DNA of 64,000 nt, from positions 4,588,001 to 4,652,000 of the forward strand of contig NC_092680.1 of the NCBI RefSeq assembly GCF_964355755.1. The letters are read 5' to 3'. The stretch is from Antedon mediterranea. Lineage: Eukaryota; Animalia; Echinodermata. A model generated the notes under the pieces. It was not told the DNA's origin, did not search any database, and worked only from the letters and a program-made list of their open reading frames with translations. This document shows positions 1 to 59,243 of the stretch, one piece after another. The translations under genes were made by a program, and so were the position numbers. Each line of letters opens with the position of its first letter. Position 1 is the stretch's first letter.

Positions 1-254
1 TGAATGAATACAAAGTAGATGAATATCACACTGTGTATAGTAAATCAAAGGTAATATTTTGTTTATTGTTTTGCTTTAGTATTTTCTCTTTTGGTGAGAT
101 TTAACACATCTTTTTTAATTAACCAGCCTATAAATCCAGAATAGGCGTACACAATATATTGTGTGTTATTTAATAATTTTATTTATGAATGTTAATTTTG
201 CAGTTCAGTTTTACCTGCAGTAGACCAATCAGTTTCACCCAGACAAGTGTTTGA
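1..254 (+). CDS. R0: 3' end of a TM-Roc-COR (ROCO) paralog, truncated by the window edge; exon ends at 50, terminal exon 204-254 (FSFTCSRPISFTQTSV*)
   Basis: 1-50 is nearly identical to the end of the R1 exon (..NEYKVDEYHTVYSKSK). Donor AAG|GTAAT at 50/51 and acceptor TTTTGCAG|TTC at 203/204. Confidence 0.8.
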
Positions 255-755
255 GAAGTTGCTACAGCTTTTAATAGTTTATAATGTTAGTTATTTACTA
301 TCTACACACATGTTCTATCGATATGCACATTGTTAATGGCAGATAATATTCAATAATCTAGAAAGTTTATGTTAAATAACATGCTTGATGATTCGTTCAA
401 TATGGATATAATAGTGTTTATAATATAATGTATATGGTCAACGTAAGGATAGAGATTAATTTAATAATAAATTATATTTTGTATTGAAATTATTATAGAT
501 TGCCATCGTCATAATATTGCATGGTTATCAAATGTTAAATCTATGTAGCAACTTATTACATTACATAAAAGAAGGTATCAGTTCAACCGAGTTGAATACA
601 TATGTCAATAAAGATGCATAGAATGTAAAAGCAAATCAAATTAGTAATTAAAACAAAACTTATAATATTGAAATTGTGGAGTAAATTAATAAACAAAATT
701 AATTGTGCGGTATTATTGTTATGTATGTGCCTACGTAATCATACATGTCTTTATG

Positions 756-2674
756 TAATTTACTACTTTCTATTGTAGAATAATATACAATGTATATATT
801 ATTTACCGGTGATAATATTATTTAAAGTAAAATGTCCCTGTGAAAACGTTTGAACTACAAACCAATGACTGGGGCGGTACATCTGTCAAATGATAACGCA
901 GGCGAGCTCAGCGAGGACGTAAACCTCGCGTAGAACAAAAGGGCAAGCTCGCTTTATTTTGATTTTCAATATGTTTAATGTGTAACAAAACTACCAAATG
1001 TTCCATCTGTCTACTATCAAAATATTTTGACAAAATATGGTATTGATATTTCGAAATATGGTAGTGATATGACATCATCATATCCATATATGGGCACATC
1101 ACATCACATCACATCACTCTACAGCTCACTATGTCGGTCGGTCGGTTGGTCGGTAAACACTAACTTGAGCACGCGACTGCAGCCATGTATATGGCCTTGT
1201 TGTCACATAAAGTTTGATAGTGTAGACAGAGCTTAAGGCGTTGTCTGCTTATCGTGAGAACGAATTCAGCAAGTTCACACATTTATTTTGCAATGTTGAC
1301 TATTAGCAATACTGTTGATTTTTCCTTTTGATTGCATTTGAATACATGATTCACAATAAGAAGTTACATTTTCTTTACTGTAAACACTATACGTTGGTGT
1401 ATAATTTATATTCTTTGTTTTAAAATGGCTGTTTGATACACAGTTTGATCGTATATATTATAATGAATATAGGGACCGAAAACAGAATATTATAAATCAC
1501 ATTGGCACTCGGATACCCTAAAAGGCCATTTATACAAACTAAACAGCAAATGAAAGTAAAACAAACAGAAGAATCTAAAAAGAAAGATACAATCAGGAAT
1601 ATAAACGGTTTGGTTATCCTACTTTCCTCGTCTTATCACAAAGAGTCAGAAAATATGTTAAAAGAATTTTGCATCAACACAACCAGTAATCACGCTATAA
1701 ACAGAAATGGGCATATAATAATTGACAAAAATCGAACACTTAAGATCGGATTATAGAAGAATATGTGGATCCGACAAAGAAGAAATGATATCACCCTAAA
1801 TTTAAACAGAATTGGCCCTCTAGAGGGCAATCTGTTTAGTGACAGAGAGTCATTCTTCTGAAGAGACTGTTAGTGAAAAGAACTAAACTGGAAAGGTAAC
1901 TTTTTAACCTCTTATATTTTTATATTTTCTTTTAAGATACTGTTTTGTTTTGTTTTTTTTTAACTAGTTATTTTAGTTGTTCTATGTCAATTAAAAAAAA
2001 TACTCAAAATGTTAAGGCAATCCAATTACGGTGTACATCAAATTGTGTATTGATTTAGAGAAAGAACAAAAATGATAACTTAAACACAAGGTATGTTTTA
2101 ACATTTTAACTCCATAACCTCAACGATGAAGAATATCGCGTTGCATGCGCCGCCGTGCAAATAGCAATGTCCTTTCGTATATTTTAGGTCTTAGATCTGT
2201 TCTTTCGAGGTCTTATTGTTAGTCATCAAACTTCAATAATTTAGGTGAGAATTAATGCGCATAATAGTTTTTTCTAAGGCATGAATTCATAAATCCGGTA
2301 CTCGATGAGAAAAATTGTATAGGGCCTACTGTTGTTGTATACTCGAGGTCTTACTAATCTAGGCCCGGTATCGCCCGGTAGGGTTTTATGATATTAAATG
2401 ATATCCCCAAGTAGGCCTACTCTAGTAACAAACCATGGTATAAATATAAATATAATATAAATACCTCCATGAACAAAACTACCCTCAATTAATGCTTTTA
2501 AAAGTCTATGTAACAGTGTGTTACATACATTTTCTGCACTGATATGCAACGTAAGTTTATATTAATTATTTTGTATAACAAACGCTATCTGCGTTTTCAA
2601 TTTCACTGTTACCACGTGAATAGAATCCTTTGTTCTGTGAAATTCCAAACATGAAAAGCATATTTTCTGTGGTA
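756..2674. repeat. ~1.9 kb intergenic segment, first copy of a local direct duplication (second copy ~3586-5507; also present once in the next unit ~9897-11796)
   Basis: Near-identical sequence from taatttactactttc to catattttctgtggta; the same 84-aa ORF occurs at 1502 and 4329. Confidence 0.9.
1116..1201 (-). mobile_element. Truncated HINE/DINE-1-like (non-autonomous Helentron) element; equivalent copies at ~3943-4028 and ~10254-10339
   Basis: Reverse complement of AACAAGGCCATATACATGGCTGCAGTCGCGTG...(CCGA)n...CATAGTGAGCTGTAGAG, the same family as 12366-12511. Confidence 0.55.
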
Positions 2675-6345: not shown

Positions 6346-9300
6346 ATGGAAAAAAAAGAACTGGATTACTTGAAAGGATATGCTGAATCCTACAAGCGAA
6401 GTTTCAACTTGCGAGTATTAGCAGATGATACTGAGATTAAAGAAGCTTACAAAACTGCTCGAGAAAGAGGAAAGTTACCTTTTAACAGAACTAAGGTTCT
6501 TATTCTGGGTGATCATGGTGCCGGGAAAACGTCAACCTGCAGGCGTTTACAAGGAAAAGATTTTCGTCCAGAAGAACCTAGTACAATTGGAATAGAAACA
6601 AACACTGTTGAGACGAAAGTCAGTGATGTTAATAGTAAATGGTGTGAGGTGACAAACACTCCATTAGAAGACTATGAAAGTTCAGCAGCGTGGTGGACAG
6701 TATCTCGTGTGCTTAAACAGGCAAAAAGGTTGTCAAAGGCACGTGGTTCGTCTGGCAATAAAACACATTTATTGATCCGAAAATTATTGGAGGACATATA
6801 TTACTTAATGTTGTATATTATCCCTTTTACTGTTATACAATGTTTTGGTGGGTTTACATTTGGGTTCGGGTCAGTTGTGTGGTTGTACATCTTTTGCATT
6901 ATGACAATATGTGACGTCCACACTGCATATCGCTTTGGTTGTGGATATGCTATAATGATGGTACTTGTAGATAGAGCTACACAAAATGAACAGTTTTCAA
7001 ACCTACAAAACATAGATATAAATACATGGATTTATTTCACTGTGGTTATGTTTGTTTGCATGTATGGAATTGGCTCATTCCTTGTCGGCATACTTATGGG
7101 CACAGGTGGAAGGACTGGTATCTGTTTAGCATTGTGTTTCATGGTACATCCAAATCAGACTGTTATTTCCATTGAAAGTTTTTTAGAAAAGCTATCATTT
7201 TTTTACAATATGATATATTATCTTAAATTCATATTTTCTGGAGTTATCCTAATAGTAATTTTTAGGAGCATTCACTCACAAATCTTTTCACTTAATCGAA
7301 GAAAGTTTATTACTTTGATAATAATTAACATCGTTTGTATCATTACAGCAATATACTTAGGAAGGAACAATTTTGTTGAAATATGTATTTTATTTTGCTT
7401 CATTGCAATTGTCTTTTCAATCATGTGTGGAGTTATATTAGGAAGAAAGATTGTAGCTTATGGCTATACACCTGGAAATTACTTTGTAAAGAAATCAGCA
7501 GGGTTTATTGTTGGAATATTTTTAGCAAAATTATGTGGTTGGAAATTTGGAAATGTGTCTAATTTAAGAGATGGTCATAACCATTCCAAGTCACAGTATA
7601 TATTTGACTTGATTTTATTTTTTGCCCCAATTACTGGTTTTATTATCTACGAATGGCATTCTTATACAAAAGTAAAAACTACATCGTCAATACCAATAGT
7701 GCATATCAGGAGGTCAATGGAAGCAGATATGCGAAACGAATGTTACATCGATGCCAGACTAAGTTTATGGGATTTTGCAGGACAAGAAATGTACTATAAT
7801 ACACACCACCTATTTATGCCAAAGCAAGGCGTATACTTGGTTGTTTTCAACGCTGTAGAAGCGATTTCTAATCCTGATAGACATATTAAACGGCTACAAT
7901 TCTGGTTACAATCTATTGCTATGCATGTTGATATTGAGAATGTTGTAGTGTTTCTTGTAGGAACAAGGAGAGAAAGTGTACGTGATGAAAATGCGTTTTC
8001 TACTTTTGGGAAATTTGTAACTGCACATCTTTACAAAAGATTTTCAAGATTGCTTGCTTTTCATCCAAGTGGACGACTTTGCTTTTTTATTGAAAACTCA
8101 TTTAATGTTGATAATGAGCTTTCCCTTTTGCGAGAAAGTATATATAATGAAGTTATGAAATTGAGATACTTTCGTGAACAATTTTCTGTAAAATATCTAC
8201 TATTTAAAGAAACGTTAAATGGATTTCGTCATAGACAGTGCGTTATTGCGAGTATAAAAGATATTGAAAACGAATTAGTGTTAACAAGTACCAACTTTGT
8301 GAAATATGAGGTGCGTCAACTTCTGAATTTCTTTGATAAATCTGGAGATATCATATACAATGAACTTGATGAACTACTTCAGAATTATGTTGTTTGTGAT
8401 CCTCAGGTATTAATAGACATTCTGAAATTATTAGTGAATGTACCTGAACCACACAAAAGAAACAGAGCCGTGTCTGATCTTTGGCAGAAATTACTGGAAA
8501 CAGGAATTGTAGACAGTAGACTATTGGAACACATTTGCCGAAACAAAGGAATTTGGAGAGTTTATCCTTACGTTATTCGGTATTTGGTCGGAACACAGTT
8601 AATGTTTCCACTTACAATAACTAACCGAGTTGATCAAGTTGGGACATTTTGTCTTCCTTGCAAATTGCCTAAAATTGAGTTGCAGCCACGTGAATTTAAT
8701 TACAGTTATCATACTTCTGACATATTTTATTTCGATTTTGGTGAAGTTTTACTAGAATTTATATTTCTTCGAATTATTGCAAAATGCTGTCAAGTGTTTG
8801 ATTGGATAAGGATCTATTATAACTGTGCGCATTTCAGAGCAAGTGAAACATGTTTTTTTCAAATAAACTCTGAGACAATTTGTGCAGATAGTATTTATGT
8901 ATATGATAGAAATCTATTAAAACTTTCAGTGTCCAAAGTAATCCCGAGTAAATCAGTCAATATCTTACGGAAAATGCATACTTTCATTGAAGAGATAATT
9001 CAACAAACATTTAATCCGGATTACTTTCACGATCAGTATCTTTTTGGTCCAGTATGTGAAAGATGTAGTTCTTTGGATGCAACGATGTGTTTGGTGAATC
9101 TTGTTGGCTTAAGTGACGATGTTTCTGCATTGAATGAATACAAAGTAGACGAATATCACACTGTGTATAGTAAATCAAAGGTAATATTTTGTTTATTGGT
9201 TTGCTTTAGTATTTTCTCTTTTGGTGAGATTTAACACATCTTTTTTAATTAACCAGCCTATAAATCCGGTATATGCGTACACAATATATTATTTGTTGTT

Positions 9301-9382
9301 TACTAATTTTATTTATGAATTAATTTTGCAGTTCAGTTTTACCTGCAGTAGACCAATCAATTTCACACAGACAAGTCTTTGA
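6346..9382 (+). CDS. R1: ROCO-family protein, Roc GTPase split by a polytopic transmembrane insert, followed by COR (~961 aa); exons 6346-9180 and 9332-9382
   Basis: G1 GDHGAGKTS (aa 55-63), switch I STIGIE, G3 LSLWDFAGQEMYYNTHHLF, G4-like FLVGTRRE; COR-like LLNFFDKSGDIIY and VVCDPQVLIDIL; ~8-10 hydrophobic segments at aa ~150-440. Phase-0 intron AAG|GTAAT...TTGCAG|TTC; last exon FSFTCSRPINFTQTSL*. Confidence 0.88.
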
Positions 9383-12639: not shown

Positions 12640-15600
12640 ATGGAAAAAAAAGAACTGGATTACTTGAAAGGATATGCTGAATCCTACAAGCGAAGTTTCA
12701 ACTTGCGTGTATTAGCAGATGATACTGAGATTAAAGAAGCTTACAAAACTGCTCGAGAAAGAGGAAAGTTACCTTTTAACAGAACTAAGGTTCTTATTCT
12801 GGGTGATCATGCTGCCGGGAAAACGTCAACCTGCAGGCGTTTACAAGGAAAAGATTTTCGTCCAGAAGAACCTAGTACAATTGGAATAGAAACAAACACT
12901 GTTGAGACGAAAGTCAGTGATGTTAATAGTAAATGGTGTGAGGTGACAAACACTCCATTAGAAGACTATGAAAGTTCAGCAGCGTGGTGGACAGTATCTC
13001 GTGTGCTTAAACAGGCAAAAAGGTTGTCAAAGGCACGTAGTTCATCTGGCAATAAAACACAATTATTGATCCGAAAATTGTTGGAGGACACATATTATTT
13101 AATGTTGTATATTATCCCTTTTACTGTTATACTATGTTTTGGTGGGTTGACATTTGGGTTTGGGCCAGTCGTGTGGTTGTACATCTTTTGCATTATGGCA
13201 ATATGTGACGTCCACACTGCATATCGCTTTGGTTGTGGATATGCTATAATAATGGTACTTGTAGATAGAGCTACACAATTAAATGAACAGTTTACAAACC
13301 TACAAAACATAGATTTAAATACATGGATTTATGTCACTGTGGTTATGTTTGTTTGCATGTATGGAATTGGATCATTCCTCGTCGGCATACTTATGGGCAC
13401 AGGAGGTAGGACTGGTATCTGTTTGGCATTGTGTTTCATGGTACATCCAAATCAGACTGTTATTTCCATTGAAAGTTTTTTAGAAAAACTATCATTTCTT
13501 TACAATATCATATATTATCTTCAATTCACAATTTTTGCAGTTATTATAATTGTAATTTTCAGGAGCGTTCACACACAAATATTTTCACTTAATCGACGAA
13601 AGTTTATTATTGTGATAATAATTAACAACGTTTGTATCATTACAGCAATATACTTAGGAAGGAACTATTTTGTTGAAATTTTTGTTTTATTTTGCTTCAT
13701 TGCAATTGTCTTTTCAATCATGTGTGGGGTTATATTAGGAAGAAAGATGGTAGCTTATGGCTATACACCTGGAAATTACTTTGTAAAGAAATCAGCAGGG
13801 TTTATTGCTGGAATATTTTTAGCAAAAGTATGTGGTTGGAAATTTGGAAGGAGTGTGTCAAATTTAAAAGATGGTCATAACCTTTCCAAGTCACAGTATA
13901 ATATATTTGACTTGATTTTATTTTTTGCCCCAATTACTGGTTTTATCATCTACGAATGGCATTCTTATATGAAAGTAAAAACTACGTCATCAATACCAAT
14001 AGTGCATATCAGAAAGTCAATGGAAGCAGATATGCGAAACGAATGTTACATTGATGCCAGACTAAGTTTATGGGATTTTGCAGGACAAGAAATGTACTAT
14101 AATACACACCATCTTTTTATGCCAAAGCAAGGCGTATACTTGGTTGTTTTTAACGCTGTAGAAGCGATTTCTAATCCTGGTAGACACATTAAACGGCTAC
14201 AATTCTGGTTACAATCTATTGCTATGCATGTTGATATTGAGAATGTTGTAGTGTTTCTTGTAGGAACAAGGAGAGAAAGTGTACGTGATGAAAATGCGTT
14301 TTCTACTTTTGGGAAATTTGTAACTGCACATCTTTACAAAAGATTTTCAAGATTACTTGCTTTTCATCCAAGTGGACGACTTTGCTTTTTTATTGAAAAC
14401 TCATTTAATGTTGATTATGAGCTTTTCCTTTTGCGAGAAAGTATATATAATGAAGTTATGAAATTGAGATACTTTCGTGAACAATTTTCTGTAAAATACC
14501 TATTATTTAAAGAAACATTAAATGGATTTCGTCATAGACAGTGCGTTATTGCGAGTATAAAAGATATTGAAAACGAATTATTGTTAATAAGTACAAACTT
14601 TGTGAAATATGAGGTGCGTCAACTTCTGAATTTCTTTGATAAATCTGGAGATATCATATACAATGAACTTGATGAACTACTTCAGAATTATGTTGTTTGT
14701 GATCCTCAGGTATTAGTAGACATTCTGACATTATTAGTGAATGTACCTGAACCACACAGAAGAAACAGAGCCGTTTCTGATCTTTGGCAGAGATTACTGG
14801 AAACAGGAGTTGTAGACAGTAGACTATTGGAACACATTTGCCGAATGAAAGGAATTTGGAGAGTTTATCCTTATGTTATTCGGTACTTGGTCGGAACACA
14901 GTTGATGTTTCCACTTACAATAACTAACCGAGTTGATCAAGTTGGGACATTTTGTCTTCCTTGCAAATTGCCTAAAATTGAGTTGCAACCACGTGAATTT
15001 AATTATAGTCATCATATTTCTGATATGTTTTATTTTGATTTTGGTGAAGTTTTACTAGAATTTATATTTCTTCGAATTATTGCAAAATGCTGTCAAGTGT
15101 TTGATTGGAGAAGGATCTATTATAACTGTGCGCATTTCAGAGCAAGTGAAACATGTTTTTTTCAAATAAACTCTGAGACAATTTGTGCAGATAGTATATA
15201 TGTATATGATAGAAATCTATTAAAACTGTCAGTGTCTAAAGTAATCCCGAGTGAATCAGTTAATATCTTACGGAAAATGCATACTTTCATTGAAGAAATA
15301 ATCCTACAAACATTTAATCCAGATTATTTTCACGATCAGTATCTTTTTGGTCCATTATGTGAAAGATGTAGTTCTTTGGATGGAACGATGTGTTTGGTGA
15401 ATCTTTTTGGCTTAAGTAACAATGTCTCCACATTGAATGAATACAAAGTAGATGAATATCACACAGTTTATTCTAAATCAAAGGTAACTGTTTAGTACTT
15501 ATATAGAATATATACTAAAATAGAATTTTGCTAAATATAATAATTGCTGTGTTTGGCAAAATATAATTTTTGTTTTTCTTTGTTTGTTAGCACTATAGCA

Positions 15601-16166
15601 TTTACTTTTTAAGATATCGTCCTACATTTTTTGTGGTTGTTAATAAGTATATACTTATTCAAATCTGACTTACCTGTTTATTTCACACGAGATATCAAAT
15701 AGCACACCCTCTGTATTCTTTTAATATGAGCCGAAATAATAAGCAGGTCATTTACTAGGCAGACCAATACAAAAATAGATTACTGAGACAAATAATAAAA
15801 AAATAATAGTACGAATAATAATAATAATATAAATTATTCTTATTATTCTGTGGCAATATTTTGCAAATACTTATGTATGTAGGCCTTATTTGTTATTAAA
15901 TGTGTATTCTTTTAACATGGCCTGAAATATCAACATGTGGCAATATTTTGCCAAGTACTTCACTCAGTTTCTGAGTGCTTTCTTTTTATATTGGTTGTAC
16001 TTTGAATTTTTTTCTTCAATTACCTATATTAGAATACAGTATAAAATGCGTACATATAGATGGTAATAATCTGTTATTATGTATACTAACTTATCATTTT
16101 TAATTTATTTTGCAGTTCAGTTTAACCTGCAGTAGACCAATAACCATCACCCAGACAACTGTTTGA
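12640..16166 (+). CDS. R2: TM-Roc-COR paralog (~964 aa); exons 12640-15483 and 16116-16166
   Basis: Same motifs as R1 (P-loop GDHAAGKTS). Donor AAG|GTAAC at 15483, acceptor TTTGCAG at 16115; last exon FSLTCSRPITITQTTV*. Confidence 0.88.
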
Positions 16167-16223
16167 TATTAAGTTTACTACAATACTTTACAAATTAAGC
16201 AAAAAGTGTTATGATATAAATAA

Positions 16224-17055
16224 TACGATAATTGTTTTTGATAGCTGAAAACCGGTTGAACAGCTCGAGTACAGAATAGGCCGATTTTCTTTAAAAAATA
16301 GTATTTTGATAGATTTAATATTATGTTTATATAAAATAATGTATTGATTTGCGATGAATGGAACATTCCAATCAGTGATTTAACACAAGTAGGTAAACTG
16401 TTGGGTCCTTGTGGATAAACCTAAAACCTTTAGATATAGTATTGCAATACTTTGACAATACTGTAAATATGTATTAACCATTTTTGGTCGCCATTTGAAT
16501 CTCAAATTTCTTACTGTTAGTGTGGATAATAAATATATAAAAACATATACAAATAAATATTTTTTTACTGTGAGTGTGGGTAGGCCCTACTGTTAGTTAT
16601 ATAAAAAATTATAAATAAATAAATAAACTTTATTACCGACAGTTCTCAACGTTTGTATTAATTAATAATTATAAAAATATAAACGTCGTATAGTAGTGGT
16701 GTATCGTTACATGTAGTTTACTATTTCAATCGACTATGACAGTAACAGTTTTAACAAAGTATTTCAAACATATTTCGTTACTAATTGGATAAAGAATATA
16801 TTTAAAAATTTCCTCTCTTTGTACTTCTCTTCCCCATCTCTCAACCCTAATGTTATATACAAAACACAAATTGGGTTTGTTTAAATGAGTCCACATCAAA
16901 CATTTTGACTCATTTTGTGACAAGTTTCCAGGGTACTAATTTTAGTTGACTACATACATCATCGTGTCTATTTATTCGTTTCTGTAAACGACAATGTATT
17001 ATATTCCTGCGGTACGTACTTTTAAAAAAAAAAACCGATTTTTTACGCTGAAATC
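16224..17055 (+). mobile_element. Internal fragment of the non-autonomous Helitron family
   Basis: Colinear with ~23939-24932 (tacgataattgttttt..agctgaaaaccggttgaa through cctgcggtacgt); lacks both termini. Confidence 0.75.
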
Positions 17056-18549: not shown

Positions 18550-18621
18550 GCCCCAGTGGTCTAATGGTTAGGGCAACTGCATATCAAGCAGACGGTCCGA
18601 GTTCGAGTCTTGGTTGGGGCG
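18550..18621 (+). tRNA. tRNA-like sequence (anticodon ATC, Asp-like), degenerate copy; probably SINE- or repeat-derived
   Basis: A box TGGTCTAATGG, B box GTTCGAGTC, acceptor GCCCCAG/TTGGGGC; one mismatch in the anticodon stem; lies in a 262-bp tandem unit ending in (TA)n. Confidence 0.45.
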
Positions 18622-18811
18622 ACTTTTTCTCATTCTCACAGATTTCCTCATCTTTATCGTTTCAAATTAATTAATTAAATTTCAGTATATCACCGGGCGG
18701 TTTAGAATTAATGTTCTTTGCCTACTGTGTTTATATATATATATATATACCGTACCACGCCGAGAATGTTAAAGAGTCGCTATCCAATCGAGTTCAAACA
18801 ATACCGTGAAA

Positions 18812-18993: not shown

Positions 18994-19030
<37 letters not shown>

Positions 19031-19351: not shown

Positions 19352-22300
19352 ATGGATAAACAAGGTTTAAATTACTTGAATGGATATAGTGAATCTTTCA
19401 AGCGAAGTTTTAACTTGCGAGTTTTAGCAGATGATACCGAGATTAAAAATACTTACAAAACTGCCGAGGAACAAGGAAAAGTACCTTTTAAAAGAACTAA
19501 GGTTCTTATTTTGGGTGATTATGGTGCCGGAAAAACATCGACTTGCAGGCGTTTACAAGGAAAAGATTTTCGACCAGAAGAGCCTAGTACAATTGGAATA
19601 GAAACAAACACCGTTGAGGCGAAAGTCAGTGATGTTAATAGTAAATGGTGTGAGGTGACAAACACTCCACTAGAAGATTATGAAAGTTCAGCAGCATGGT
19701 GGACAGTATCACGTGTGCTCAAACAGGGCAAACATAAGGTGCCGAATGCTCGTGGTTTGTCTGATAACAATAAACGAGTATCGATCAGAAAAGTACTGGA
19801 AGACACATGTTATTTAATGTTGTATATCATTCCTTTTACTGCTATACTATGTTTCGGTGGGCTTACATTCGGTTTTGGGCCAGTCGTGTGGTTATACACC
19901 GGTAGCATTATGGCAATATGTGATGTTCACACTGCTTATCGCTTTGGTTGTGGATTCTCTGTATGGATGGTACTCGTAGATAGTGTAACAACACTAAATG
20001 AACAATTCGAAAATGTACAAAGCATAGACTTATGGATTTACACAACAGCTGTTAGGGTTGTTTGCATGTATGGAATTGGTTCGTTCCTTATTGGTGTGCT
20101 TGTCAGTGCAGGTAGTAGGACTGGTATCTGTGTAGCATTGTGCTTTATGGTACATCCAAGACAAACTTCAATTGAAGACTTTTTAGAAAAACTGTCTTTT
20201 ATTGAAAATATAGTTTACTTTAAATTTGTAATTTCTGTCTGTATCATAACAGCAATATTTAGGAGCATTCACACCAAAATATTGCCACTTAGTCGAAGGA
20301 AGTTGATTATTATATTAATGATTAACTTAATTTGTATCATTACAGCAATATATTATTTCGGAAGTAATAATTTTGTCGAAATTTGCATTTCATTTTGCTT
20401 TATTGCGATTGCTTTTTCTATAACCTGTGGAATTATATTAGGAAGAACAATTGTAGCTTATGGGTATGTGCCTGAAAATTACTTTATTAAGAAATCTTTT
20501 GGGTTTTTAGCTGGGATATGTTTAGCCACACTGTGTGGTTGGGAATTTGAAAATGTAAAGAATTTAATTATTTTAAATGATGGCCATAGCCATTCAACGT
20601 CAAAGTATTTATTTAACTTGTTTCTATTTTTTGCGCCAATTACTGGGTTTATTATCTACGAGTTATTATCTTATGTTAAAGTAAAAACTACATCATTAAT
20701 ACCATTAAAGCAAATAAGGAAATCAATTAAAGCAGAAGTGCGTAACGAATGTTACATAGATGCCAGACTAAGTTTATGGGATTTTGCAGGACAACAAATG
20801 TACTATAATACACACCATCTGTTTATGCCAAAGCAAGGCGTATACTTGGTTGTTTTCAACGCTGTAGAAGCGATTTCTAATCCCGATAGACACATTAAAC
20901 GGCTACAATTCTGGTTACAATCTATTGCTATGCATGTTGATATTGAGAATGTTGTAGTGTTTCTTGTAGGAACAAGAAGAGAAAGTGTACGTGATGGAAA
21001 TGCGTTTTCTACTTTTGATAAATTTGTAAATGCACATATTTATAAAAGGTTTTCAAGATTGATTGCTTTTCATCCAAGTGGACGACTTTGCTTTTTTATT
21101 GAAAACTCATTTAATGTTGATAAGGAGCTTTACCTTTTGCGAGAAAGTATATATAATGAAGTTACAAAATTGAGATACTTTCTTGAAAAATGTTCTGTAA
21201 AATATCTACGATTTAAAGAAACGATAACTGGATTTTGTCATAGACAGTGCGTTATTGCGAGTATCAAAGATATTGAAAACGAATTGTTGTTAACAAGTAC
21301 CAACTTTGTGAAATATGAGGTGCGTCAACTTCTGAATTTCTTTAATAAATCTGGAGACATTATTTACAATGAACTTGATGAAGTACTTCACAATTATGCT
21401 GTTTGTGATCCTCAGGTATTAATAGACATTCTTACAGTATTAGTGAATGTACCTGAACCACACAAAAGAAACAAAGCCGTGTCTGATCTTTGGCAGAGAT
21501 TACAAGAAACTGGGATTGTTGATAGTAGACTGATGGAACACATTTGCCAAGACAAAAGAATTTGGAGAGTCTATCCTTTAGTAATTAAGTACTTGGTGGG
21601 AACACAGTTGATGATTCCAATTAAAATAACTAATCAAGTTGATCAAGTTGGAACATTTTGTATTCCTTGCAGATTGCCCAAAATTGATTTGGAAAAATTT
21701 GAATTTAATTATAGTGAACATATTTCTGACGTATTTTATTTCGATTTTGGTGAAGTTCTACAAGAATTTATATTTCTTCGACTTCTTGCAAAATGCTGCC
21801 AGGAGAAAGAGTTTGATTGGGTTAAGATATATTACAACTGTGCCCAATTCAGAGCGAGTGAAACATGTTTGTTTCAAATAAACTCTAAAACAATTTCTTC
21901 GGGCAGTGTTTTGTTATATGATAGAAATCTCATCAAACTGTCAGTGTCTAAAGAAATCCCGAGTCAATCAGTTAATATATTACAGAAACTGCACACTTTC
22001 ATTGAAGAAATAATTTTACAGACATTTAATCAGGATTACTTTCGTGATCAGTATGTTTGTGGTCCAGTATGTGAAATATGTAGTTCATTGAATGGAACGA
22101 TGTGTTTGGTGAATCTTGCTTCATTAAGTAACGATGTATCTGCATTGAAGGAATACAGGGTAGATCAATACCACACAGTTTATCGTGAAGGAAAGGTAAT
22201 TTGGTTTTATGATTTTTCTATTAGCAATGAAAATTTAAAGCCATATTTCATTGAATCAATTATATTGTATAATTCATTGTGTATACAAAGGTAAAACAAT

Positions 22301-22389
22301 AATTCATTAATTTTTATTTTATACTAATTTGATTTTTAAATGCTTTAATTTTCCAGTTTTCTTTAAGGTGTAGTCGACCAATAACCTAG
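19352..22389 (+). CDS. R3: divergent TM-Roc-COR paralog (~958 aa); exons 19352-22195 and 22357-22389
   Basis: GDYGAGKTS, STIGIE, WDFAGQQMYY and COR motifs. Donor AAG|GTAAT, acceptor TTCCAG|TTT; last exon FSLRCSRPIT*. Confidence 0.86.
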
Positions 22390-29411: not shown

Positions 29412-30274
<863 letters not shown>

Positions 30275-40987: not shown

Positions 40988-43900
40988 ATGGAACAAGAAG
41001 GATTGAATTACTTGAGAGGATGTGCTGAATCTTTCAAGCGAAGTTTTAATTTGCGAGTTTTAGCAGATGATTCCGAAATTAAAGAAACTTACAAAACAGC
41101 TCAAGAAAAAGGAAAAGTACCTGTTAACAGAACTAAGGTTCTTATTCTGGGTGATCAAGGGGCCGGAAAAACGTCGACCTGCAGGCGTTTACAAGGAAAG
41201 GATTTTCGATCAGAAGAGCCTAGTACAATCGGAATAGAAACAAACACCGTTGAGGCGAAAGTCAGTGATGTTAATAGTAAATGGTGTGCAGTGACAAGCA
41301 CTCCACTTGAAGACTATGAAAGTTCTGCAGCGTGGTGGACAGTATCACGTGTGCTTAAACAGGATAAATATAAGGATAAGTTAAAGGCAATGAATACGTC
41401 TGAAAATAATACACGTCCTTCGATCCGAAAAGTATTACAGGACACATATTACCTAATGTTTCATATTATGCCTATGACAGTAATGTTCTGTTTTGGTGGA
41501 CTTACATTCGGATTCGGGCCAGTTGCATGGTTTTATATAACTAGATGGCACGCTCGCTTCGCTCGCGTACCATCTAGGTCGTGCCCACAGATGGTTCTCG
41601 AATACACAGTATTTCCAGCGAGAAAAAAATGGAGATTTCAAATGTACGTACCGCAGGACTATAATACATTGTCGTTTACAGAAACGAATAAATATACACA
41701 ATGATTTATGTAGTCAACCAAAATTAGCACCCTGGGAATTACTTCCGAGAGAGAAACAAATTTTTTTATTCGGACTCATTTAAACAAACCCAATTTGTGT
41801 TTTGTATGTAACATTAAGGGTTGAGGGATGGGGAAAGAAGATAGGTACAAAGAGGAAACATTTTAAAATATATTCTTATCCACTCAGTAACGAAATATTG
41901 TTTTTAATGTTTTATAGGCCTATAAATAATATACCATTAAATACAGTAAAACATTTACGATTTAATACGGTACTTTGTTAAAACTCTCACTGTCATAGTC
42001 GATTGAAATAGTAAAGTACATGTAACGATACACCACTACGACGTTTATATATTTTTAAATTATTAATTAATACAAACGTTGAGAAGCAACTGTCAGTAAT
42101 AACGTTTATTTATTTGTATATTATATGTTTATAATCTAACAGTAGGGCCTACCCACACTCACAGTAATAAAGTTTATTTGTATATATTTTATATTACATC
42201 TAACAGTACCAACACTCACAGTAAGAAATTTGCTATTCAAATTGCGATCAAAAGTGGTTAATACCTTAACAGTATTGTACAGCATTGCAGTACTATTTAT
42301 GTTTATTCTCCAAGGGGGCCCATAAATCTAAATCTATACCTCTATGGTTAAACCAAATAATTTGGAATGTTTATTTGTATATTATATGTTTATAATCTAA
42401 CAGTAGGGCCTACCCACACTCACAGTAATAAAGTTTATTTGTATATATTTTTATATTACATCTAACAGTACCAACACTCACAGTAAGACATTTGCGATTC
42501 AAATTGCGATCAAAAGTGGTTAATACCTTAACAGTATTGTACAGCATTGCAATACTATTTATGTTTATTCTCCAAGGAGGCCCATAAATCTAAATCTATA
42601 CCTGTATGGTTAAACCAAATAATTTGGAATGTTCCATTCATCACAAATCAATACATTTGTAAAAACGTATATTAAATGTAACAAAATAGTATTTTTTAAA
42701 GAAAATCGGCCTGTCTTCAACATTATGATGCTGTACTCGAACTGTTCAACCGGTTTTCAGCTATTAAAAACAATTATCGTAGGAGGAGATAGAAAAATGC
42801 GAAGCCTCCTCGCATTTTTGTGGCGGGTATTTTTCAAGATGGACATCCATTAGACAGTGTATACCACGATCGGAAAACACCCCTATTTGGGGCAAATCTT
42901 TGAACCTAAATTCGTTTTAATCGTCAATAACTAATTATCTAACTTAATTTAATTAGTAAACAGGGTTACATCAGGTGGTTAAAATCAGTACCGAAAGTAC
43001 GAACCAACTTTACATACCATCGAGTAAAAATTCTAAAAGTAAGGCGCGATTTACCGAATTTTGCCCTTACGTAAATTTATATATAGATTTGTCTTTCGGT
43101 ATTTTGTGATTTTCACAGTGCCTATCGCTTTGGCTGTGGTTGTACTATATGTATGGTACTCATAGATAGCGCTACACATTTTGGCCAGCAACATGTTATA
43201 CAATTTAATTTACAGATGTACGTAATGACTATAACAATTGTCTGCATGTATGGACTGGGGTCGTTCCTTGTTGGTGTGCTTATGACTACAGGTGGAAGGA
43301 CTGGCATCTGTATAGCTTTGTGTTGCATGATACATCCAAGCCATACCACCATTTCCCTCGAAGTCTTACTAGAACACTTATCTAATATGTTTTACAGTAT
43401 GAAATATTTAGAATTCTCAATTTATGGCGTTACTATATTGGCCATCTTTAGGATCATTCACACCAAAATATTTTCGCTTAGTCCAAGAAATATGATAATT
43501 GTATTGCTACTTAATATCATGCTTATAACAGCAGCGATATATTTCGGAAGGAACAGTTTTGTTGACGTTTGTACATTATTTTGTTTTACTTTTACTGTGT
43601 TTTTCTTAATTTGTGGGCTAATATTAGGAAGAAAATTAGTGGCGTATGGATATATCCCCCAACAGTATCTTTTTAAAAAGTCTATTGGGTTTATTGCTGG
43701 AATATCTATTGGCAAAATGTGTGGTTGGGAAATTGGCAACTTTAACCATCTAAGTATATCAGAGAAAGAGAATAACATTTCTATGTCAAGTTTGTTGACA
43801 TTTATTGCCCCGATTTGGGGGTTTATAATCTACGAATGGTTTTCTTACATGAAAGTAAAATCGACGTCATTGATACCAATTGTGCATATCAGAAAATCAA

Positions 43901-45521
43901 TGGAAGCAGATCTACGAAACGAATGTTCCATTGACGCAAGACTAAGTTTATGGGATTTTGCAGGACAAGAAATGTACTATAATACACACCACCTGTTTAT
44001 GCCAAAGCAGGGCGTATACTTGGTTGTTTTCAACGCTGTAGAGGCGATTTCTAATCCTGGTAGACACATTAAACGGCTACAATTCTGGTTACAATCTATT
44101 GCTATGCATGTTGATATTCAGAATGCTGTAGTGTTTCTTGTAGGAACAAGAAGAGGAAGTGTACCTGATGCAAATGCTTTTTCCACTTTTGATAAATTTG
44201 TAAATGCACATCTTTACAGAAGGTTTTCAAAATTTCTTGCTTTTCATCCAAGTGGACAACTTTGCTTTTTTATTGAAAACGCATTCAACTTTGATAAGGA
44301 GCTTAACATCTTACGAGAAAGGATATATAATGAAGTAACAAGATTGAAATATTTTTGCGAAATGTTTTCTGTAAAATACCTATTATTTAAAAACACTTTA
44401 AATGGATTTCGACATAGACAGTGTATTATTACGAGTGTAAAAGATATTGAAAATGAATTAATGTTAACAAGCAAAATATTTGTGAAATATGAAGTGCGTC
44501 AACTTTTGAATTTCTTTGATAAATCTGGAGATATCATATACAATGAACTTGATGAACTACTTCAAAATTATGTTGTTTGTGATCCTCAGGTATTAATAGA
44601 CATTCTGAAATTATTAGTGAATGTACCTGAACCACACAAAAGAAACAGAGCCGTGTCTGATCTTTGGCAGAGATTACAAGAAACTGGGATTGTAGACAGC
44701 AGACTGATGGAACACATTTGCCGAAACAAAGGAATTTGGAGAGTTTATCCTTATGTTATTCGGTACTTGGTGGGAACAGAGTTGATTTTTCCACTTACAA
44801 TAACTAATCAAGTTGATCAAGTTGGGACATTTTGTCTTCCTTGCAAATTGCCCAAAATTAATTTACAAGTTGAATTTGATTCTAATCATACTTCTAATAT
44901 ATTTTAATTCGATTTTGGTGAAGTTTTATTAGAATTTATATTTCTTCGACTTATTGCAAAATGCTGCCAAGTTTTTGATTGGCTTGAGGTCTATTATAAC
45001 TTTGCACATTTCAGAGCAAGTGAAACATGTTTGTTTCAAATAAACACTGAAACAGTTCCTTCGGACAGTATTTTCCAATACGATAGAAATCTCATCAAAC
45101 TTTCAGTTTTAAAGGAAATCCCGAGTCAGTCAGTTAATATCTTACAGAAAATGCATACTTTCATTGAAGAAATAATCCTACAAACGTTTAATCCGGAATA
45201 CTTTCATGATCAGTATCTTTTTGGTCCAGTATGTGAAAGATGTAGTTCTTTGGATGGAACAATGTGTTTGGTGAATCTTGTTGGAATAAATAACGATGCA
45301 TCGAATGAATACAGAGTAGATAAATATCACAAAGTGTATCACAAATCAAAGGTTATAATTATATGGTTATTTTACCTAAATTAATTATCTTGGTTAGTAG
45401 TGAGTAACGCCATAGTTAATTGATTAAGTTTTTGTTTTTAATATTATTTATACTAATTTGCTTTATAAATTCTTTTATTTTACAGTTCAGTTTTACCTGC
45501 TGTAGACCAACCTTCACCTAG
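40988..45521 (+). pseudogene. R7: TM-Roc-COR pseudogene (Helitron insertion 41541-43087; TAC>TAA at 44905-44907); terminal exon 45486-45521
   Basis: Removing the insert restores WFYIICLSVF in frame; a single nonsense codon lies in COR (..SNIF*FDFGE). Confidence 0.88.
41541..43087 (-). mobile_element. Non-autonomous Helitron (~1.55 kb) inserted in the R7 coding exon
   Basis: Minus-strand TC...CTAG termini with 3' hairpin; the empty site TATATAA|TTTGTC is seen in R6/R9; no TSD; internal ~260-bp tandem duplication. Confidence 0.92.
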
Positions 45522-49039: not shown

Positions 49040-52000
49040 ATGGAACAACAAGGATTGAATTACTTGAGAGGATGTGCTGAATCTTTCAAGCGAAGTTTTA
49101 ATTTGCGAGTTTTAGCAGATGATTCCAAAATTAAAGAAACTTACAAAAGAGCTCAAGAAAAAGGAAAAGTAACTGTTAACAGAACTAAGGTTCTTATTCT
49201 GGGTGATCATGGTGCCGGAAAAACGTCGACCTGCAGGCGTTTACAAGGAAAGGATTTCCGACCAGAAGAGCCTAGTACAATCGGAATAGAAACAAACACA
49301 GTTAAGACGAACGTTAGTGATGTTAATAGTAAATGGTGTGAGGTGACAAGCACTCCACTTGAAGACTATGAAAGTTCAGCAGCGTGGTGGACAGTATCAC
49401 GTGTGCTTAAACAGGATAAATATAAGGATAAGTTAAAGGCAATGAATACGTCTGAAAATACATATGCTTCGATCCGAAAAGTATTACAAGACACATATTA
49501 CCTAATGTTTCATATTATGCCTATGACAGTAATGTTCTGTTTTGGCGGACTTACATTCGGATTCGGGCCAGTTGCATGGCTTTATATTATTTGTCTTTCG
49601 GTATTTTGTGATTTTCACACTGCCTATCGATTTGGCTGTGGTTATACTATATGTATGGTACTCATAGATAGCGCTACACATTTTGGGCAGCAACAGGTCA
49701 TACAATTTAATTTACAGATTTACGTAATGACTATAACAATTGTCTGCATGTATGGACTGGGGTCGTTCCTTGTTGGTGTGCTTATGACTACAGGTGGAAG
49801 GACTGGCATCTGTATAGCTTTGTGTTGCATGATACATCCAAGCCATACCATAATTTCCCTCGAAGTCTTACTAGAACACTCATCTAAGATGTTTTACAGT
49901 TTGAAATATTTAGAATTCTCAATTTATGGAGTTACTATATTGACCATTTTTAGGATCATTCACACCAAAATATTTTCGCTTAGTCTAAGAAATGTGATAA
50001 TTGTATTGGTACTTAATATCATGCTTATAACAGCAGCGATATATTTCAGAAGGAACAATTTTGTTGACGTTTGTACATTATTTTGTTTTATTTCTACTGT
50101 GTTTTTCTTAATTTATGGGGTTATAATAGGAAGAAAATTTGTGGCGTATGGATATATCCCTCAAAACTATCTTTTTAAAAAGTCTATTGGGTTTATTGCT
50201 AGAATATATATTGGCAAGATATGTGGTTGGGAAATTTGCAATTTTAACCATCTAAGTATATCAGAGAAAGAAAATAGCCTTTCTATGTCAAGTTTGTTGA
50301 CATTTATTGTCCCGATTTGGGGGTTTATAATCTACGAATGGTTTTCTTACATGAAAGTAAAATCGACGTCATCGATACCAATTGTGCATATCAGAAAATC
50401 AATGGAAGCAGACCTACGAAACGAATGTTCCATTGAAGCCAGACTAAGTTTATGGGATTTTGCAGGACAGGAAATGTACTATAATACACACCATCTGTTT
50501 ATGCCAAAGCAAGGCGTATACTTGGTTGTTTTCCATGCTGTAGAAGCGATTTCTAATCCCGATAGACACATTAAACGGCTACAATTCTGGTTACAGTCTA
50601 TTGCTATGCATGTTGATATTGAGAATGCTGTAGTGTTTCTTGTAGGAACAAGAAGAGGAAGTGTACCTGATGCAAATGCGTTTTCCACTTTTGATAAATT
50701 TGTAAATGCACATCTTTTCAAAAGGTTTTCAAGATTGCTTGCTTTTCATCCTAGTGGACAACTTTGCTTTTTTATTGAAAACGCATTCAACTTTGATAAG
50801 GAGCTTAACATCTTACGAGAAAGAATATATAATGAAGTAACAAAATTGAAATATTTTTGCGAAATGTTTTCTGTAAAATACCTATTATTTAAAAACACTT
50901 TAAATGGATTTCGACATAGACTGTGTATTATTGCGAGTGTAAAAGATATTGAAGATGAATTAATGTTAACAAGCAAAATCTTTGTAAAATATGAAGTGCG
51001 TCAACTTTTGAATTTCTTTGATAAATCTGGAGATATCATATACAATGAACTTGATGAACTACTTCAGAATTATGTTGTTTGTGATCCTCAGGTATTAATA
51101 GACATTCTTAAATTATTAGTGAATGTACCTGAACCACACAGAAGAAACAGAGCCGTGTCTGACCTTTGGCAGAGATTACAAGAAACCGGAATTGTTGACA
51201 GTTTACTGATGGAACACATTTGCCGAAATAAAGGAATTTGGAGAGTTTATCCTTATGTGATTCGGTACTTGGTGGGAACAGAGTTGATGTTTCCACTTAC
51301 AATAACTAATCAAGTTGATCAAGTTGGAACATTTTGTCTTCCTTGCAAATTGCCCAAAATTTATTTACAACAAGGTGAATTTGATTCTAATCATACTTCT
51401 AATATATTTTACTTCGATTTTGGTGAAGTTTTACTAGAATTTATATTTCTTCGACTTATTGCAAAATGCTGCCAAGTTTTTGATTGGCTTGAGGTCTATT
51501 ATAACTTTGCACATTTCAGAACAAGTGAAACTTGTTTGTTTCAAATAAACACTGAAACAGTTTCTTCGGGCAGTATTTTCCTATACGATAGAAATCTCAT
51601 CAAACTTTCAATTTTAAAGGAAATCCCGAGTCAGTCAGTTAATATCTTACAGAAAATGCATACTTTCATTGAAGAAATAATCCTACAAACGTTTAATCCG
51701 GAATACTTTCATGATCAGTATCTTTTTGGTCCTGTGTGTGAAAGATGTAGTTCTTTGGATGGAACAATGTGTTTGGTGAATCTTGTTGCACTATGTAACG
51801 ATGCATCGAATGAATACAGAGTAGATACATATCACAAAGTGTATCACAAACCAGAGGTAATTATGGTTATTTTACCTAAATGTGCTTTATTAATTAATTA
51901 TCTTTGTTAGTAGTGAGAAGTAAAGCCATAGTTAATTGATTAGGTTTTTGTTTTTAATAATTATTATTTATACTAATTTGCTTTATAAATTATTTTATTT

Positions 52001-52041
52001 TGCAGTTCAGTTTTACCTGTTGTAGACCAACCTTTACCTAG
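49040..52041 (+). CDS. R8: TM-Roc-COR paralog (~950 aa); exons 49040-51856 and 52006-52041
   Basis: All motifs present; upstream in-frame TGA; donor GAG|GTAAT; last exon FSFTCCRPTFT*. Confidence 0.88.
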
Positions 52042-56002: not shown

Positions 56003-56178
56003 GGTCTTTCACACCTGTTCCAGCACGTTTCCGGTAAATCTAATCGAAAGTCAATATTTCGTTTTCACGTGGCTACGCGCATATCGATTGGCGCATAGCC
56101 GCGTGGAGCGTCGTGAAAACGAAATATTGATGTTCGATTCGCCGGACCGGAACCGGGCCGGAAGAGGTGTGAAAGACC
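56003..56178. mobile_element. Palindromic MITE ~70 bp upstream of the R9 start
   Basis: TIR GGTCTTTCACACCT/AGGTGTGAAAGACC; internal IR TCAATATTTCGTTTTCACG/CGTGAAAACGAAATATTGA. Confidence 0.7.
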
Positions 56179-56249
56179 ATTTACGTTTCATTTTTAAGTA
56201 CTGTATATCTGCTGCGAACACAATTATGAGGAAAAGATAAGGAAAGAAG

Positions 56250-59243
56250 ATGGAACGTAAAACACTGAATTACTTGAGAGGATGTACTGAATCTTTCAAG
56301 CGAAGTTTTAATTTGCGAGTTTTAGCAGATGATTCCGAAATTAAAGAAACTTACAAAACAGCTCAAGAAAAAGGAAAAGTAACTTTTAACAGAACTAAAG
56401 TTCTTATTCTGGGTGATCATGATGCCGGAAAAACCTCGACTTGCAGGCGTCTACAAGGAAAAGATTTTCGATCAGAAGAGCCTAGTACAATCGGAATAGA
56501 AACAAACACTGTTGAGACAAACGTTAGTGATGTTAATAGCAAATGGTGTGAGGTGACAACCACTCCATTAGAAGACTATGAAAGTTCAGCAGCGTGGTGG
56601 ACAGTATCTCGTGTGCTCAAACAGGATAAACCTAAGGATAAGTTAAAGGAAAATAATACGTCTGAAAATGATACACGTCCTTTGATCCGAAAAGTATTAC
56701 AGGACACATATTACCTAATGTTTTATATTATGCCTATGACAGTAATGTTTTGTTTTGGTGGACTTACATTTGGATTCGGGCCAGTTGCATGGTTTTATAT
56801 AATTTGTCTTTCGGTATTTTGTGATTTTCACAGTGCCTATCGCTTTGGCTGTGGTTGTACTATATGTATGGTACTCATAGATAGTGCTACACATTTTAGC
56901 CAACAACATGTCATACAATTTAATTTACAGATTTACGTAATGGCTATAACAATTGTCTGCATGTATGGACTGGGGTCGTTCCTTGTTGGTGTGCTTATGA
57001 CTACAGGTGGAAGGACTGGCATCTGTATAGCTTTGTGTTGCATGATACATCCAAACCATATGACAATATCCCTCGAAGTCTTACTAGAACACTTATCTAA
57101 GATGTTTTACAGTATGAAATATTTAGAGTTCACAATTTATGGAGTTACTATATTGACCATTTTTAGGATAATTCACACAAAAACAATATCGCTTAGTCTA
57201 CGAAATGTGATAATTGTATTGCTACTTAATATCATGCTTATAACAGCAGCGATATATTTAGGAAGGCACAATTTTGTTGACATTTTTACATTATTATTTT
57301 TTATTTTTACCTTGTTTTTCTTAATGTGTGGGCTAATAATAGGAAGAAAATTAGTGGCGTATGGATATATCCCCCAACAATACCTTTTTAAAAAGTCTAT
57401 TGGGTTTATTGCTGGAATATATATTGGCAAAATGTGTGGTTGGGAAATTGGCAATTTTAACCATCTAAGTATATCAGAGAAAGATCATAGCCTCTCTATG
57501 TCAAGTTTGTTGACATTTATTGCCCCGATGGGGGGGTTTATTATCTACGAATGGTTTTCTTACATGAAAGTAAAATCGACGTCATCGATACCAATTGTGC
57601 ATATCAGAAAATCAATGGAAGCAGATCTACGAAACGAATGTTCAATTGACGCAAGACTAAGTTTATGGGATTTTGCAGGACAAGAAATGTACTATAATAC
57701 ACACCACCTGTTTATGCCAAAGCAAGGCGTATACTTGGTTGTTTTCAATGCCTTAGAGGCGATTTCTAATCCTGGTAGACACATTAAACGGCTACAATTC
57801 TGGTTACAATCTATTGCTATGCATGTTGATATTGAGAATGCTGTAGTGTTTCTTGTAGGAACAAGAAGAGGAAGTGTACGTGATGCAAATGCTTTTTCCA
57901 CTTTTGATAAATTTGTGAATGCACATCTTTACAAAAGGTTTTCGAAATTGCTTGCTTTTCATCCAAGTGGACAACTTTGCTTTTTTATTGAAAACGCATT
58001 CAACTTTGATAAAGAGCTTAACATCTTACGAGAAAGGATATATAATGAAGTAACAAAATTGAAATATTTTTGCGAAATGTTTTCTGTAAAATACCTATTA
58101 TTTAAAAATACTTTAAATGGATTTCGACATAGACAATGTATTATTGCGAGTGTAAAAGATATTGAAAATGAATTAATGTTAACAAGCAAAATCTTTGTGA
58201 AATATGAGGTGCGTCAACTTCTGAATTTCTTTGATAAATCTGGAGATATCATATACAATGAACTTGATGAACTGCTTCAGAATTATGTTGTTTGTGATCC
58301 TCAGGTATTAATAGACATTCTGAAATTATTAGTGAATGTACCTAAACCACACAGAAGAAACAGAGCCGTGTCTGACCTTTGGCAAAGATTACAAGAAACT
58401 GGGATTGTTGATAGTAGACTTATGGAACACATTTGCCGAAATAAAGGAATTTGGAGAGTTTATCCTTATGTTATTCGGTACTTGGTAGGAACACAGTTGA
58501 TATTTCCACTTACAATAACCAATCAAGTTGATCAAGTTGGAACATTTTATCTTCCTTGCAAATTGCCCAAACATAATTTACACGGTGAATTTGATTCTAA
58601 TCATACTTCGAATATATTTTACTTCGATTTTGGTGAAGTTTTACTAGAATTTATATTTCTTCGACTTATTGCAAAATGCTGCCAAGTTTTTGATTGGCTT
58701 GAGGTCAATTATGACTTTGCACATTTCAGAGCAAGTGAAACATGTTTGTTTCAAATAAACACTGAAACAGTTTCTTCGGGCAGTATTTTTTTATACGATA
58801 GAAATCTCATCAAACTTTCAGTTTTAAAGGAAATACCGAGTCAGTCAGTTAATATCTTACAGAAAATGCATACTTTCATTGAAGAAATAATCCTACAAAC
58901 CTTTAATCCCGAAAACTTTCATGATCAGTACCTTTTTGGTTCAGTATGTGAAAGATGTAGTTCTTTGGATGGAGCAATGTGTTTGGTTAATCTTGTTGGA
59001 ATAAATAACGATGCATCGAATGAATACAGAGTAGATAAATATCACAAAGTGTACCACAAACCAAAGGTAATTACATGGTTATTTTACCTAAATGTGCTTT
59101 AATTAGTTATCTTGGTTAGTAGTGAGTAACGCCATAGTTAATTGATTTAGTTTTTGTTTTTAATTTTATTTATACTAATTTGCTTTATAAATTCTTTTAT
59201 TTTGCAGTTCAGTTTAAAATGCTGTAGACCAACCTTCACCTAG
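56250..59243 (+). CDS. R9: TM-Roc-COR paralog (~950 aa); exons 56250-59066 and 59208-59243
   Basis: P-loop GDHDAGKTS, other motifs as in R1; donor AAG|GTAAT; last exon FSLKCCRPTFT*. Confidence 0.88.

Follow-up and report, generated by a model that had tools for sequence, protein, structure and literature searches.

Insert-bearing Roco genes in the feather star Antedon mediterranea: a predicted ten-helix membrane domain within Roc and a possible role in danger sensing

A 64,000-nucleotide stretch of the genome of the crinoid (feather star) Antedon mediterranea (contig NC_092680.1; hereafter the window) carries a tandem array of genes for Roco-type GTPases in which a predicted membrane insert of ten helices interrupts the Roc domain. 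Comparison with other animals shows that the insert-bearing proteins form a real subfamily, spread across bilaterian invertebrates and apparently undescribed. Six-frame translation and BLAST with one copy placed ten copies (R0 to R9) at positions 1-59243 of the window, all on the forward strand, and none beyond. This bore out an earlier interpretation made from the DNA letters alone (the sequence-only reading), which had counted ten co-oriented copies: six intact (R1, R2, R3, R6, R8 and R9), two pseudogenes (R4 and R7), one 3' fragment (R5) and one copy cut off by the window start (R0). The insert may serve as the sensor of a membrane-bound receptor, and the contrast between a variable insert and a more uniform GTPase is best accounted for by recombination between copies.

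A Roc domain in two parts

In all six intact copies the Pfam Roc profile (PF08477) matches in two stretches, with 69-73 bits against a cut-off of 27. When aligned to the Roc domain of LRRK2, query residues 43-85 pair with positions 15-59 and residues 465-610 with positions 66-198. About 380 residues thus replace about 6 of LRRK2, after the switch I threonine and before the DxxG of switch II. G1, the switch I threonine and DxxG are intact, as in Roco GTPases, and the residues of G1 and G4 vary across the array. The mean identity of nine Antedon array-type proteins is 0.85 and 0.89 over the two Roc-bearing segments, so that the near-invariant GTPase described in the sequence-only reading was an overstatement. 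At the acidic position of G4, R1-R3 have glutamate and R4 and R6-R9 have glycine (R6 amino acids (aa) 531-537); loss of the acidic residue may mean altered nucleotide use in the latter copies. Variation of G4 and G5 among Rocos is described in the accessible sections of PMC6337361.

The match to COR-A is weak in the array copies (E 0.004-0.02) and above the cut-off in relatives from Patiria. In the full-length structural model, the C-terminal half matches LRRK1, LRRK2 and the Roc-COR of C. tepidum (24 matches with E ≤ 0.001, best 3e-6), in a model that is poor overall (mean predicted local distance difference test score, pLDDT, 49.5). As only about 45 aa precede G1, with no leucine-rich repeat (LRR) match, and no other sensor domain was found in the array proteins with Pfam, the insert is the sole candidate input module. 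From this architecture it is plausible that the insert sets specificity, as the sequence-only reading had supposed.

The membrane insert

Folded alone with 86 aligned relatives, the insert gave a confident model (pLDDT 87.5, predicted template modeling score 0.86) of ten long helices, the boundaries of which we assigned by our own judgment. Alternate loops and the two ends are rich in lysine and arginine, and acidic residues and most of the conserved glycosylation sequons lie in the other loops. This pattern is consistent with ten membrane crossings that would place both ends, and hence both Roc halves, in the cytosol. Positions conserved among the 86 sequences include a series of glycines and the intramembrane residues R196, R257, R368, W400 and E439. 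The two halves of the insert showed no internal repeat (HHalign probability 3.5%).

Searches for a known relative of this domain were negative. The insert had no Pfam match, and three inserts from the window gave no match below E 0.07 against NCBIfam. With the insert model, Foldseek found no match at E ≤ 0.001 in the PDB or among viral models, VIA reached a best Z of 6.7 over about 60 residues with none of 48,161 chains at Z ≥ 8, and an Atlas search with the insert gave no usable match. These missing matches do not prove a new fold; no family name is attachable to the domain.

Insert-bearing Rocos in other animals

Crinoid proteins (Antedon and Anneissia) made up 29 of the 33 matches in the first search, and a profile search added Ptychodera, Patiria and further proteins. 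A full HMMER scan returned 14,345 matches, the best 150 of which were examined. Among these 150, G1 and G3 were recognized by pattern in 94 proteins, 36 of them with at least four hydrophobic segments between the two motifs, and 57 proteins scored at least 20 bits on an insert profile (reversed decoys reached 6.5); most of the 57 had been used to build that profile and five had not. Soluble Rocos among the examined matches mostly have 100-270 residues at the insert site, which indicates that the membrane domain sits at a known variable position. Length variation at switch I is noted for Rocos in the sections of PMC6337361 that were available.

In a tree of the second Roc half and COR, calculated with the insert excluded, one branch (support 97/94) separates 34 insert-bearing from 21 soluble rows; these 55 of 142 rows were chosen to cover lineages, and the root is not known. 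FastTree recovered the same split at 0.99 on all 142 rows. Representatives of the insert-bearing candidates come from the sponge Oscarella and from Branchiostoma, Tubulanus, Lingula and Ptychodera. In profile-profile comparisons, where reversed controls reached at most 4.9%, the crinoid insert was homologous to those of the groups that contain Ptychodera/Patiria (99.8%), Tubulanus (99.1%), Branchiostoma (98.3%) and Lingula (94.5%); by the same method it could not be linked to the inserts of the group with the sponge protein (18%, E 0.0013) or of the deepest group (0.1%). The insert is common to crinoid, sea star, hemichordate, amphioxus, brachiopod and nemertean proteins, and its motifs are kept across at least four phyla. 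Annotation misses such proteins because no profile exists for the membrane domain and the Roc match comes in two pieces.

A scan of metagenomes with the crinoid alignment gave 41 pattern matches and no confirmed locus, and a word-seeded search with a broader alignment found no additional insert-bearing protein. The nearest Atlas cluster (862 aa, Roc in 100%, Cnidaria the commonest group) is a lead only. In the group that includes the Lingula protein (P0084, P0087, P0089, P0097, P0099 and P0109), switch II reads R-D-F/Y-A-G instead of W-D-F-A-G, and the P-loop contains a glutamine.

Effector tails of the relatives

Eighteen of 46 scanned insert-bearing candidates end in a recognizable C-terminal effector domain: Death in 14, TIR in 3 and caspase in 1. 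Death tails occur in Ptychodera, Lingula and Oscarella; the Tubulanus protein has a TIR tail and the Branchiostoma protein a caspase tail. These tails are the strongest support that we have for an immune or cell-death role, which they suggest for the family as a whole. The crinoid genes end shortly after COR, and the immune-receptor interpretation given in the sequence-only reading thus draws its support from the relatives and not from the crinoid copies themselves. A hidden effector exon in the window was considered and rejected, as none was found with tail profiles in any frame. Four proteins (P0071, P0076, P0093 and P0102) have a common C-terminal domain that was missed by Pfam and that resembles the TIR tails weakly (E about 1e-5 to 1e-12); from this similarity it is probably a divergent TIR domain.

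Proposed mechanism

We put the probability at about one half that the insert acts as the sensor of a one-chain, membrane-bound danger receptor. The insert joins switch I to switch II and could pull on both, so that changes within it would affect the nucleotide state of Roc-COR as well as its monomer-dimer cycle. In the relatives, the dimer cycle would cluster the C-terminal Death, TIR or caspase domain and lead to inflammation or cell death. The tail-less crinoid copies could signal via a partner bound to COR or to the tail, or act as modulators. In a bacterial Roco, switch II relays nucleotide-dependent oligomer changes, according to the accessible part of PMC6337361, and a Roc-COR monomer-dimer cycle is described in the corresponding parts of PMC6337361 and PMC4104024.

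Several results weigh against the danger-receptor reading. Among the 46 scanned relatives 28 showed no effector tail, although some of these may be cut gene calls. Tail profiles run against every frame of the window gave no match of the Death or TIR kind or the like (best E 0.36-2.2), which leaves the output of the array's own copies unexplained. The first Roc half is unfolded in the full-length model (residues 1-147 below pLDDT 50), and this model gives no support to our supposition that the two Roc halves would refold into one G domain. G4 is atypical, reading T-R-R-E in R1-R3 and T-R/Q-R-G in R4 and R6-R9, and GTP specificity is therefore uncertain. The conserved glycines and the buried arginine, glutamate and tryptophan residues of the insert fit a transporter or channel equally well. 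Finally, no significant positive selection was detected, and the predicted outer loops are conserved (ratio of nonsynonymous to synonymous substitution rates, dN/dS, 0.29), unlike the ligand-binding LRRs of algal Rocos.

A broader proposal, which we regard as somewhat less likely than not, is that of an ancient and overlooked animal receptor class in which a ten-helix sensor of unclassified fold lies between the switch loops of its own GTPase, with Death, TIR or caspase output; a single chain would then combine the receptor, the G protein and the adaptor. Such a class would extend through bilaterian invertebrates and perhaps to sponges, and in crinoids it would have diversified anew into tail-less sensor arrays, in which GTPase-COR halves are exchanged beneath sensor modules that stay fixed.

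It is rather unlikely, in our judgment, that the insert forms a channel or transporter for which the Roc-COR switch of the same protein is the gate, a FeoB-like logic. The insert would then be output rather than input, and the tail-less copies would be explained. The ten helices with their conserved glycine series and intramembrane charged and tryptophan residues agree with this, as does the maintenance of the tail-less crinoid copies under purifying selection. However, many relatives carry signalling tails that are swapped between lineages and would be needless for a transporter, and the insert halves lack an internal repeat.

Recombination between copies

The insert had been read as a hypervariable membrane module under selection. 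Its dN/dS is below 1 (0.31-0.35), and the rate of synonymous substitution (dS) is itself raised 2-4 fold there between clades. From these comparisons it is very probable that recombination between copies homogenises the GTPase-COR part and leaves the insert diverging under purifying selection. In pairs of R1/R2/R3 with R6/R8/R9 the insert has a dS of 0.79-0.95 and the C-terminal part one of 0.24-0.35, and dN/dS for the same groups is 0.32-0.41 and 0.24-0.40, respectively. Differences at four-fold sites of distant pairs are 0.36-0.57 in the insert against 0.14-0.23 in the second Roc half plus COR, in 11 of 11 pairs (Fisher p ≤ 0.0044), and distant copies show a silent divergence 2-4 times higher for the insert than for Roc-COR. 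The introns and 3' flanks of distant copies differ by 0.27-0.57, like the silent sites of the insert; it is thus the insert that records the true age of the copies, and Roc-COR is too young.

Trees of the insert and of the Roc-COR region reject each other (approximately unbiased test, p = 0.0002 and 0.001), and mosaic genes were found in two crinoid species, Antedon and Anneissia. In the Antedon pseudogene R4 the difference from R6 falls from 22-29% to 1-7% at the end of the insert. In Anneissia, the insert places P0009 and P0011 with P0008, whereas the C-terminal part places them with P0007, and each grouping has 99-100% support. A difference in mutation rate as the cause of the dS contrast was rejected, since four-fold divergence is equal between the insert and the second Roc half plus COR in four of four close pairs and the GC content of four-fold sites is similar (0.27 versus 0.20). 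After correction, a simple test for the longest identical run reached significance in just 5 of 28 pairs, three of which involve R4. The argument for old conversion between clades therefore rests on the dS contrast and the tree conflict, not on visible tracts. The insert may be shielded from conversion by selection or may merely be too diverged for it.

Selection on the insert

Site models (M0, M1a, M2a, M7, M8 and M8a) were fitted with our own implementations and F3x4 codon frequencies to the six intact genes, pseudogenes being excluded. No significant positive selection was found in the insert or the C-terminal part, with the low power of six genes and a possible bias from recombination. For the insert, p was 0.31 for M2a against M1a, 0.056 for M8 against M7 and 0.053 for M8 against M8a. 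The whole-insert dN/dS of about 0.31-0.35 compares with 0.21-0.26 in the GTPase-COR part. By segment, dN/dS was 0.30 in helices 1-5, 0.32 in helices 8-10, 0.29 in the outer loops, 0.18 in the inner loops, 0.17 in the Roc halves and 0.25 in COR. Helices 6-7 stand out at 0.74 against 0.27 in the rest of the insert (p = 0.003, for a segment picked after the fact); this value is not different from 1, and the contrast is not significant without R1 and R2. Fitted alone on their 36 codons, the two helices give 1.29, again not different from 1. Among the longer windows of this part of the gene, dN/dS peaks (0.62-0.67) in the linker before helix 1 (R2 aa 119-146, window positions 12994-13077).

The comparison of R1 and R2 was the starting point of the sequence-only reading, and our recount gave the same numbers, with one difference in the first 125 aa and 16 in a 68-aa stretch. 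This clustering exceeds that in all of 5000 shuffles of the 59 substitutions, and silent changes are not raised in the 68 codons (6 of 56). Replacements are thus genuinely in excess at this place, which would fit either relaxed constraint or weak diversification. Loop indels had also been reported to differ among copies, and predicted outer loops account for 18 of the insert's 25 gap columns. Across the insert, dN/dS is below 1 and dS rises with dN between clades, which largely agrees with the pattern that the sequence-only reading had itself named as contrary to its proposal; recombination explains the greater part of the contrast.

Slightly less probable than a gated channel is that the insert is a mere membrane or organelle anchor of a Roco adaptor, with turnover and divergence largely neutral and reinforced by a feedback, as the less constrained insert would drop under the identity that conversion requires. 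An insert dN/dS below 1 throughout would agree with this, as would the fastest change in helices 6-7, which fits relaxed constraint, and the death of three of the nine copies that are fully visible. Nevertheless, one or two helices would suffice for anchoring, as in the algal Rocos described in the accessible part of PMC3341825, and not ten conserved across at least four phyla. The placement of the insert between the two switches also speaks against an anchor.

We consider it improbable, and a little more so than an anchor, that diversifying selection drives the membrane module toward new recognition specificities. The concentration of R1/R2 replacements in helices 6-8, where silent changes are not raised, the elevated dN/dS of helices 6-7, the borderline M8 tests (p about 0.055) and the preference of indels for outer loops point in that direction, and to this extent the idea of positive selection on the insert retains some support. 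However, no test for positive selection was significant, the top M8 sites (128 and 141) lie in the cytosolic linker and not in the membrane part, no 36-codon window of the insert exceeds a dN/dS of 0.47, and dS rises with dN.

Array layout and neighboring elements

In each gene a single long exon of about 945 codons is followed by a GT-AG intron and then by a short last exon of 10-17 codons (Table 1). Pseudogenes R4, which has several frameshifts, and R7, together with the fragment R5, lie among the intact copies, and the array is supported as a birth-and-death array, as had been proposed. Chemoreceptor clusters are multi-pass, nearly single-exon tandem genes with pseudogenes, and the array resembles them; that the genes encode chemosensory receptors which carry their own G protein is nonetheless very unlikely, because the tails of the relatives are Death, TIR and caspase, the helices number ten and not seven, and there is no receptor match in Pfam or NCBIfam.

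Table 1. Features of the insert-bearing Roco array, in window coordinates.
Feature	Position	Strand	Description
R0	1..254	+	end of main exon, intron and last exon; copy cut by window start
R1, intact	6346..9382	+	exon 6346-9180, last exon 9332-9382; identical to P0001 (XP_071964422.1, 961 aa)
R1 68-codon stretch (helices 6-8)	7198..7401	+	16 amino-acid differences from R2
R2, intact	12640..16166	+	exon 12640-15483, longer intron, last exon 16116-16166
R2 Roc first half (aa 45-97)	12772..12930	+	contains G1 (P-loop) and T80, the switch I threonine
R2 membrane insert (aa 147-441)	13078..13962	+	ten predicted helices within Roc domain
R2 Roc second half (aa 470-610)	14047..14469	+	G3/switch II and G4
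R2 COR region and cysteine-containing tail (aa 611-948)	14470..15483	+	weak COR-A match; fold match to LRRK1/2 and bacterial Roco
R3, intact	19352..22389	+	last exon 22357-22389
R4, frameshifted pseudogene, mosaic	26299..29291	+	difference from R6 22-29% in insert, 1-7% in downstream part and intron
R5, 3' fragment	29412..30274	+	second half of COR, intron and last exon
R6, intact	32881..35865	+	identical to P0006 (XP_071965569.1, 946 aa)
R7, pseudogene	40988..45521	+	broken by 1548-bp insertion and stop codon at 44905-44907
1548-bp insertion in R7	41539..43086	-	Helitron-like ends
R8, intact	49040..52041	+	last exon 52006-52041
R9, intact	56250..59243	+	last exon 59208-59243; final copy in window

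The flanks of R1 and R2, which had been described as almost identical, are so only upstream, where they are 93.7% alike over 2808 columns; downstream the common stretch is only 87 nt at 82%. The downstream flank of R1 resembles that of R0, as a tandem unit of about 6.3 kb would predict. For R2, the public model (P0002, 769 aa) stops early, and the frame in the window is open to 948 aa and followed by a normal last exon. Further Antedon members of the family lie outside the window (P0003, P0004, P0005, P0010, P0015, P0022, P0023 and P0025), so that the array or the family is larger than ten.

The insertion in R7 begins with TC at its 5' end and ends with CTAG at its 3' end, in an A|T target and with no target duplication; we take it to be Helitron-like on the basis of these ends. 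A second copy of this non-coding element lies between R3 and R4 (23632-25002, forward strand), and a partial third copy follows R2 (about 16224-17054). Two tandem units of 262 bp at 18511-19011 each contain a tRNA-Asp(ATC)-like sequence (18550-18621 and 18812-18883) and are probably a tRNA-derived repeat or pseudogene. The spacer between R0 and R1 holds a 1.9-kb direct duplication (756-2674 and 3586-5507, 97%) with about 900 bp of unrelated sequence between the two parts. Just past the array, a 19-bp minisatellite of about 71 copies (60447-61825) has long repetitive open frames.

Comparison with known systems

The way in which an input controls the Roc-COR cycle of Roco proteins, LRRK2 among them, is still debated. 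A membrane domain tied to both switches would provide a compact natural system for testing this coupling, and the family is a candidate invertebrate immune receptor class beside the TLRs and NLRs. The array is also a clear case in which an apparently variable sensor on a constant signalling core arises from gene conversion and not from detectable positive selection. The literature searched described no multi-pass domain inside Roc in animals; the Roco surveys of 2006-2008, figures and supplements were outside its scope, including about forty animal Roco architectures drawn in a figure of PMC11378527. The sections of PMC2575513 and PMC10236652 that were available contain nothing on an insert-bearing Roco family.

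The array proteins share the order of Roc followed by COR with the Roco GTPases LRRK1/2, DAPK1, MFHAS1 and bacterial Roco, but differ from them in having no LRR, ankyrin or kinase domain, in the interruption of Roc by the membrane insert and in the atypical G4. The LRR-ROCO genes of brown algae are clustered, with high birth-and-death, and are proposed immune receptors, as given in the accessible parts of PMC3341825 and PMC11378527. Inserts inside Roc are noted there as well, and some of the proteins have membrane segments. In the algal proteins, however, the sensor is an exon-shuffled LRR under positive selection and the one or two membrane segments are C-terminal anchors, whereas the array described here has a predicted ten-helix domain inside Roc and no significant positive selection.

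Soluble proteins that combine Roc-COR with TIR or Death are reported from Aplysia and sea anemones in the available sections of PMC9334734 and PMC5094078, respectively, and bacterial AP-GTPase conflict systems join Roc-COR to many effectors, according to those of PMC8195603. Like the relatives of the array, these systems place interchangeable Death, TIR or caspase effectors on a Roc-COR switch. They have LRRs or other soluble N-terminal modules, those sections describe no membrane domain within Roc, and the crinoid copies differ from them in being tail-less. Membrane-bound NLRs of anthozoans, which carry a NACHT ATPase, LRRs and three to five N-terminal helices in the accessible descriptions of PMC3879445 and PMC5094078, resemble the array family as an immune receptor type with an NTPase switch tethered by several helices. 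Unlike these NLRs, the array proteins have a Roc GTPase with the membrane insert placed inside the switch domain itself.

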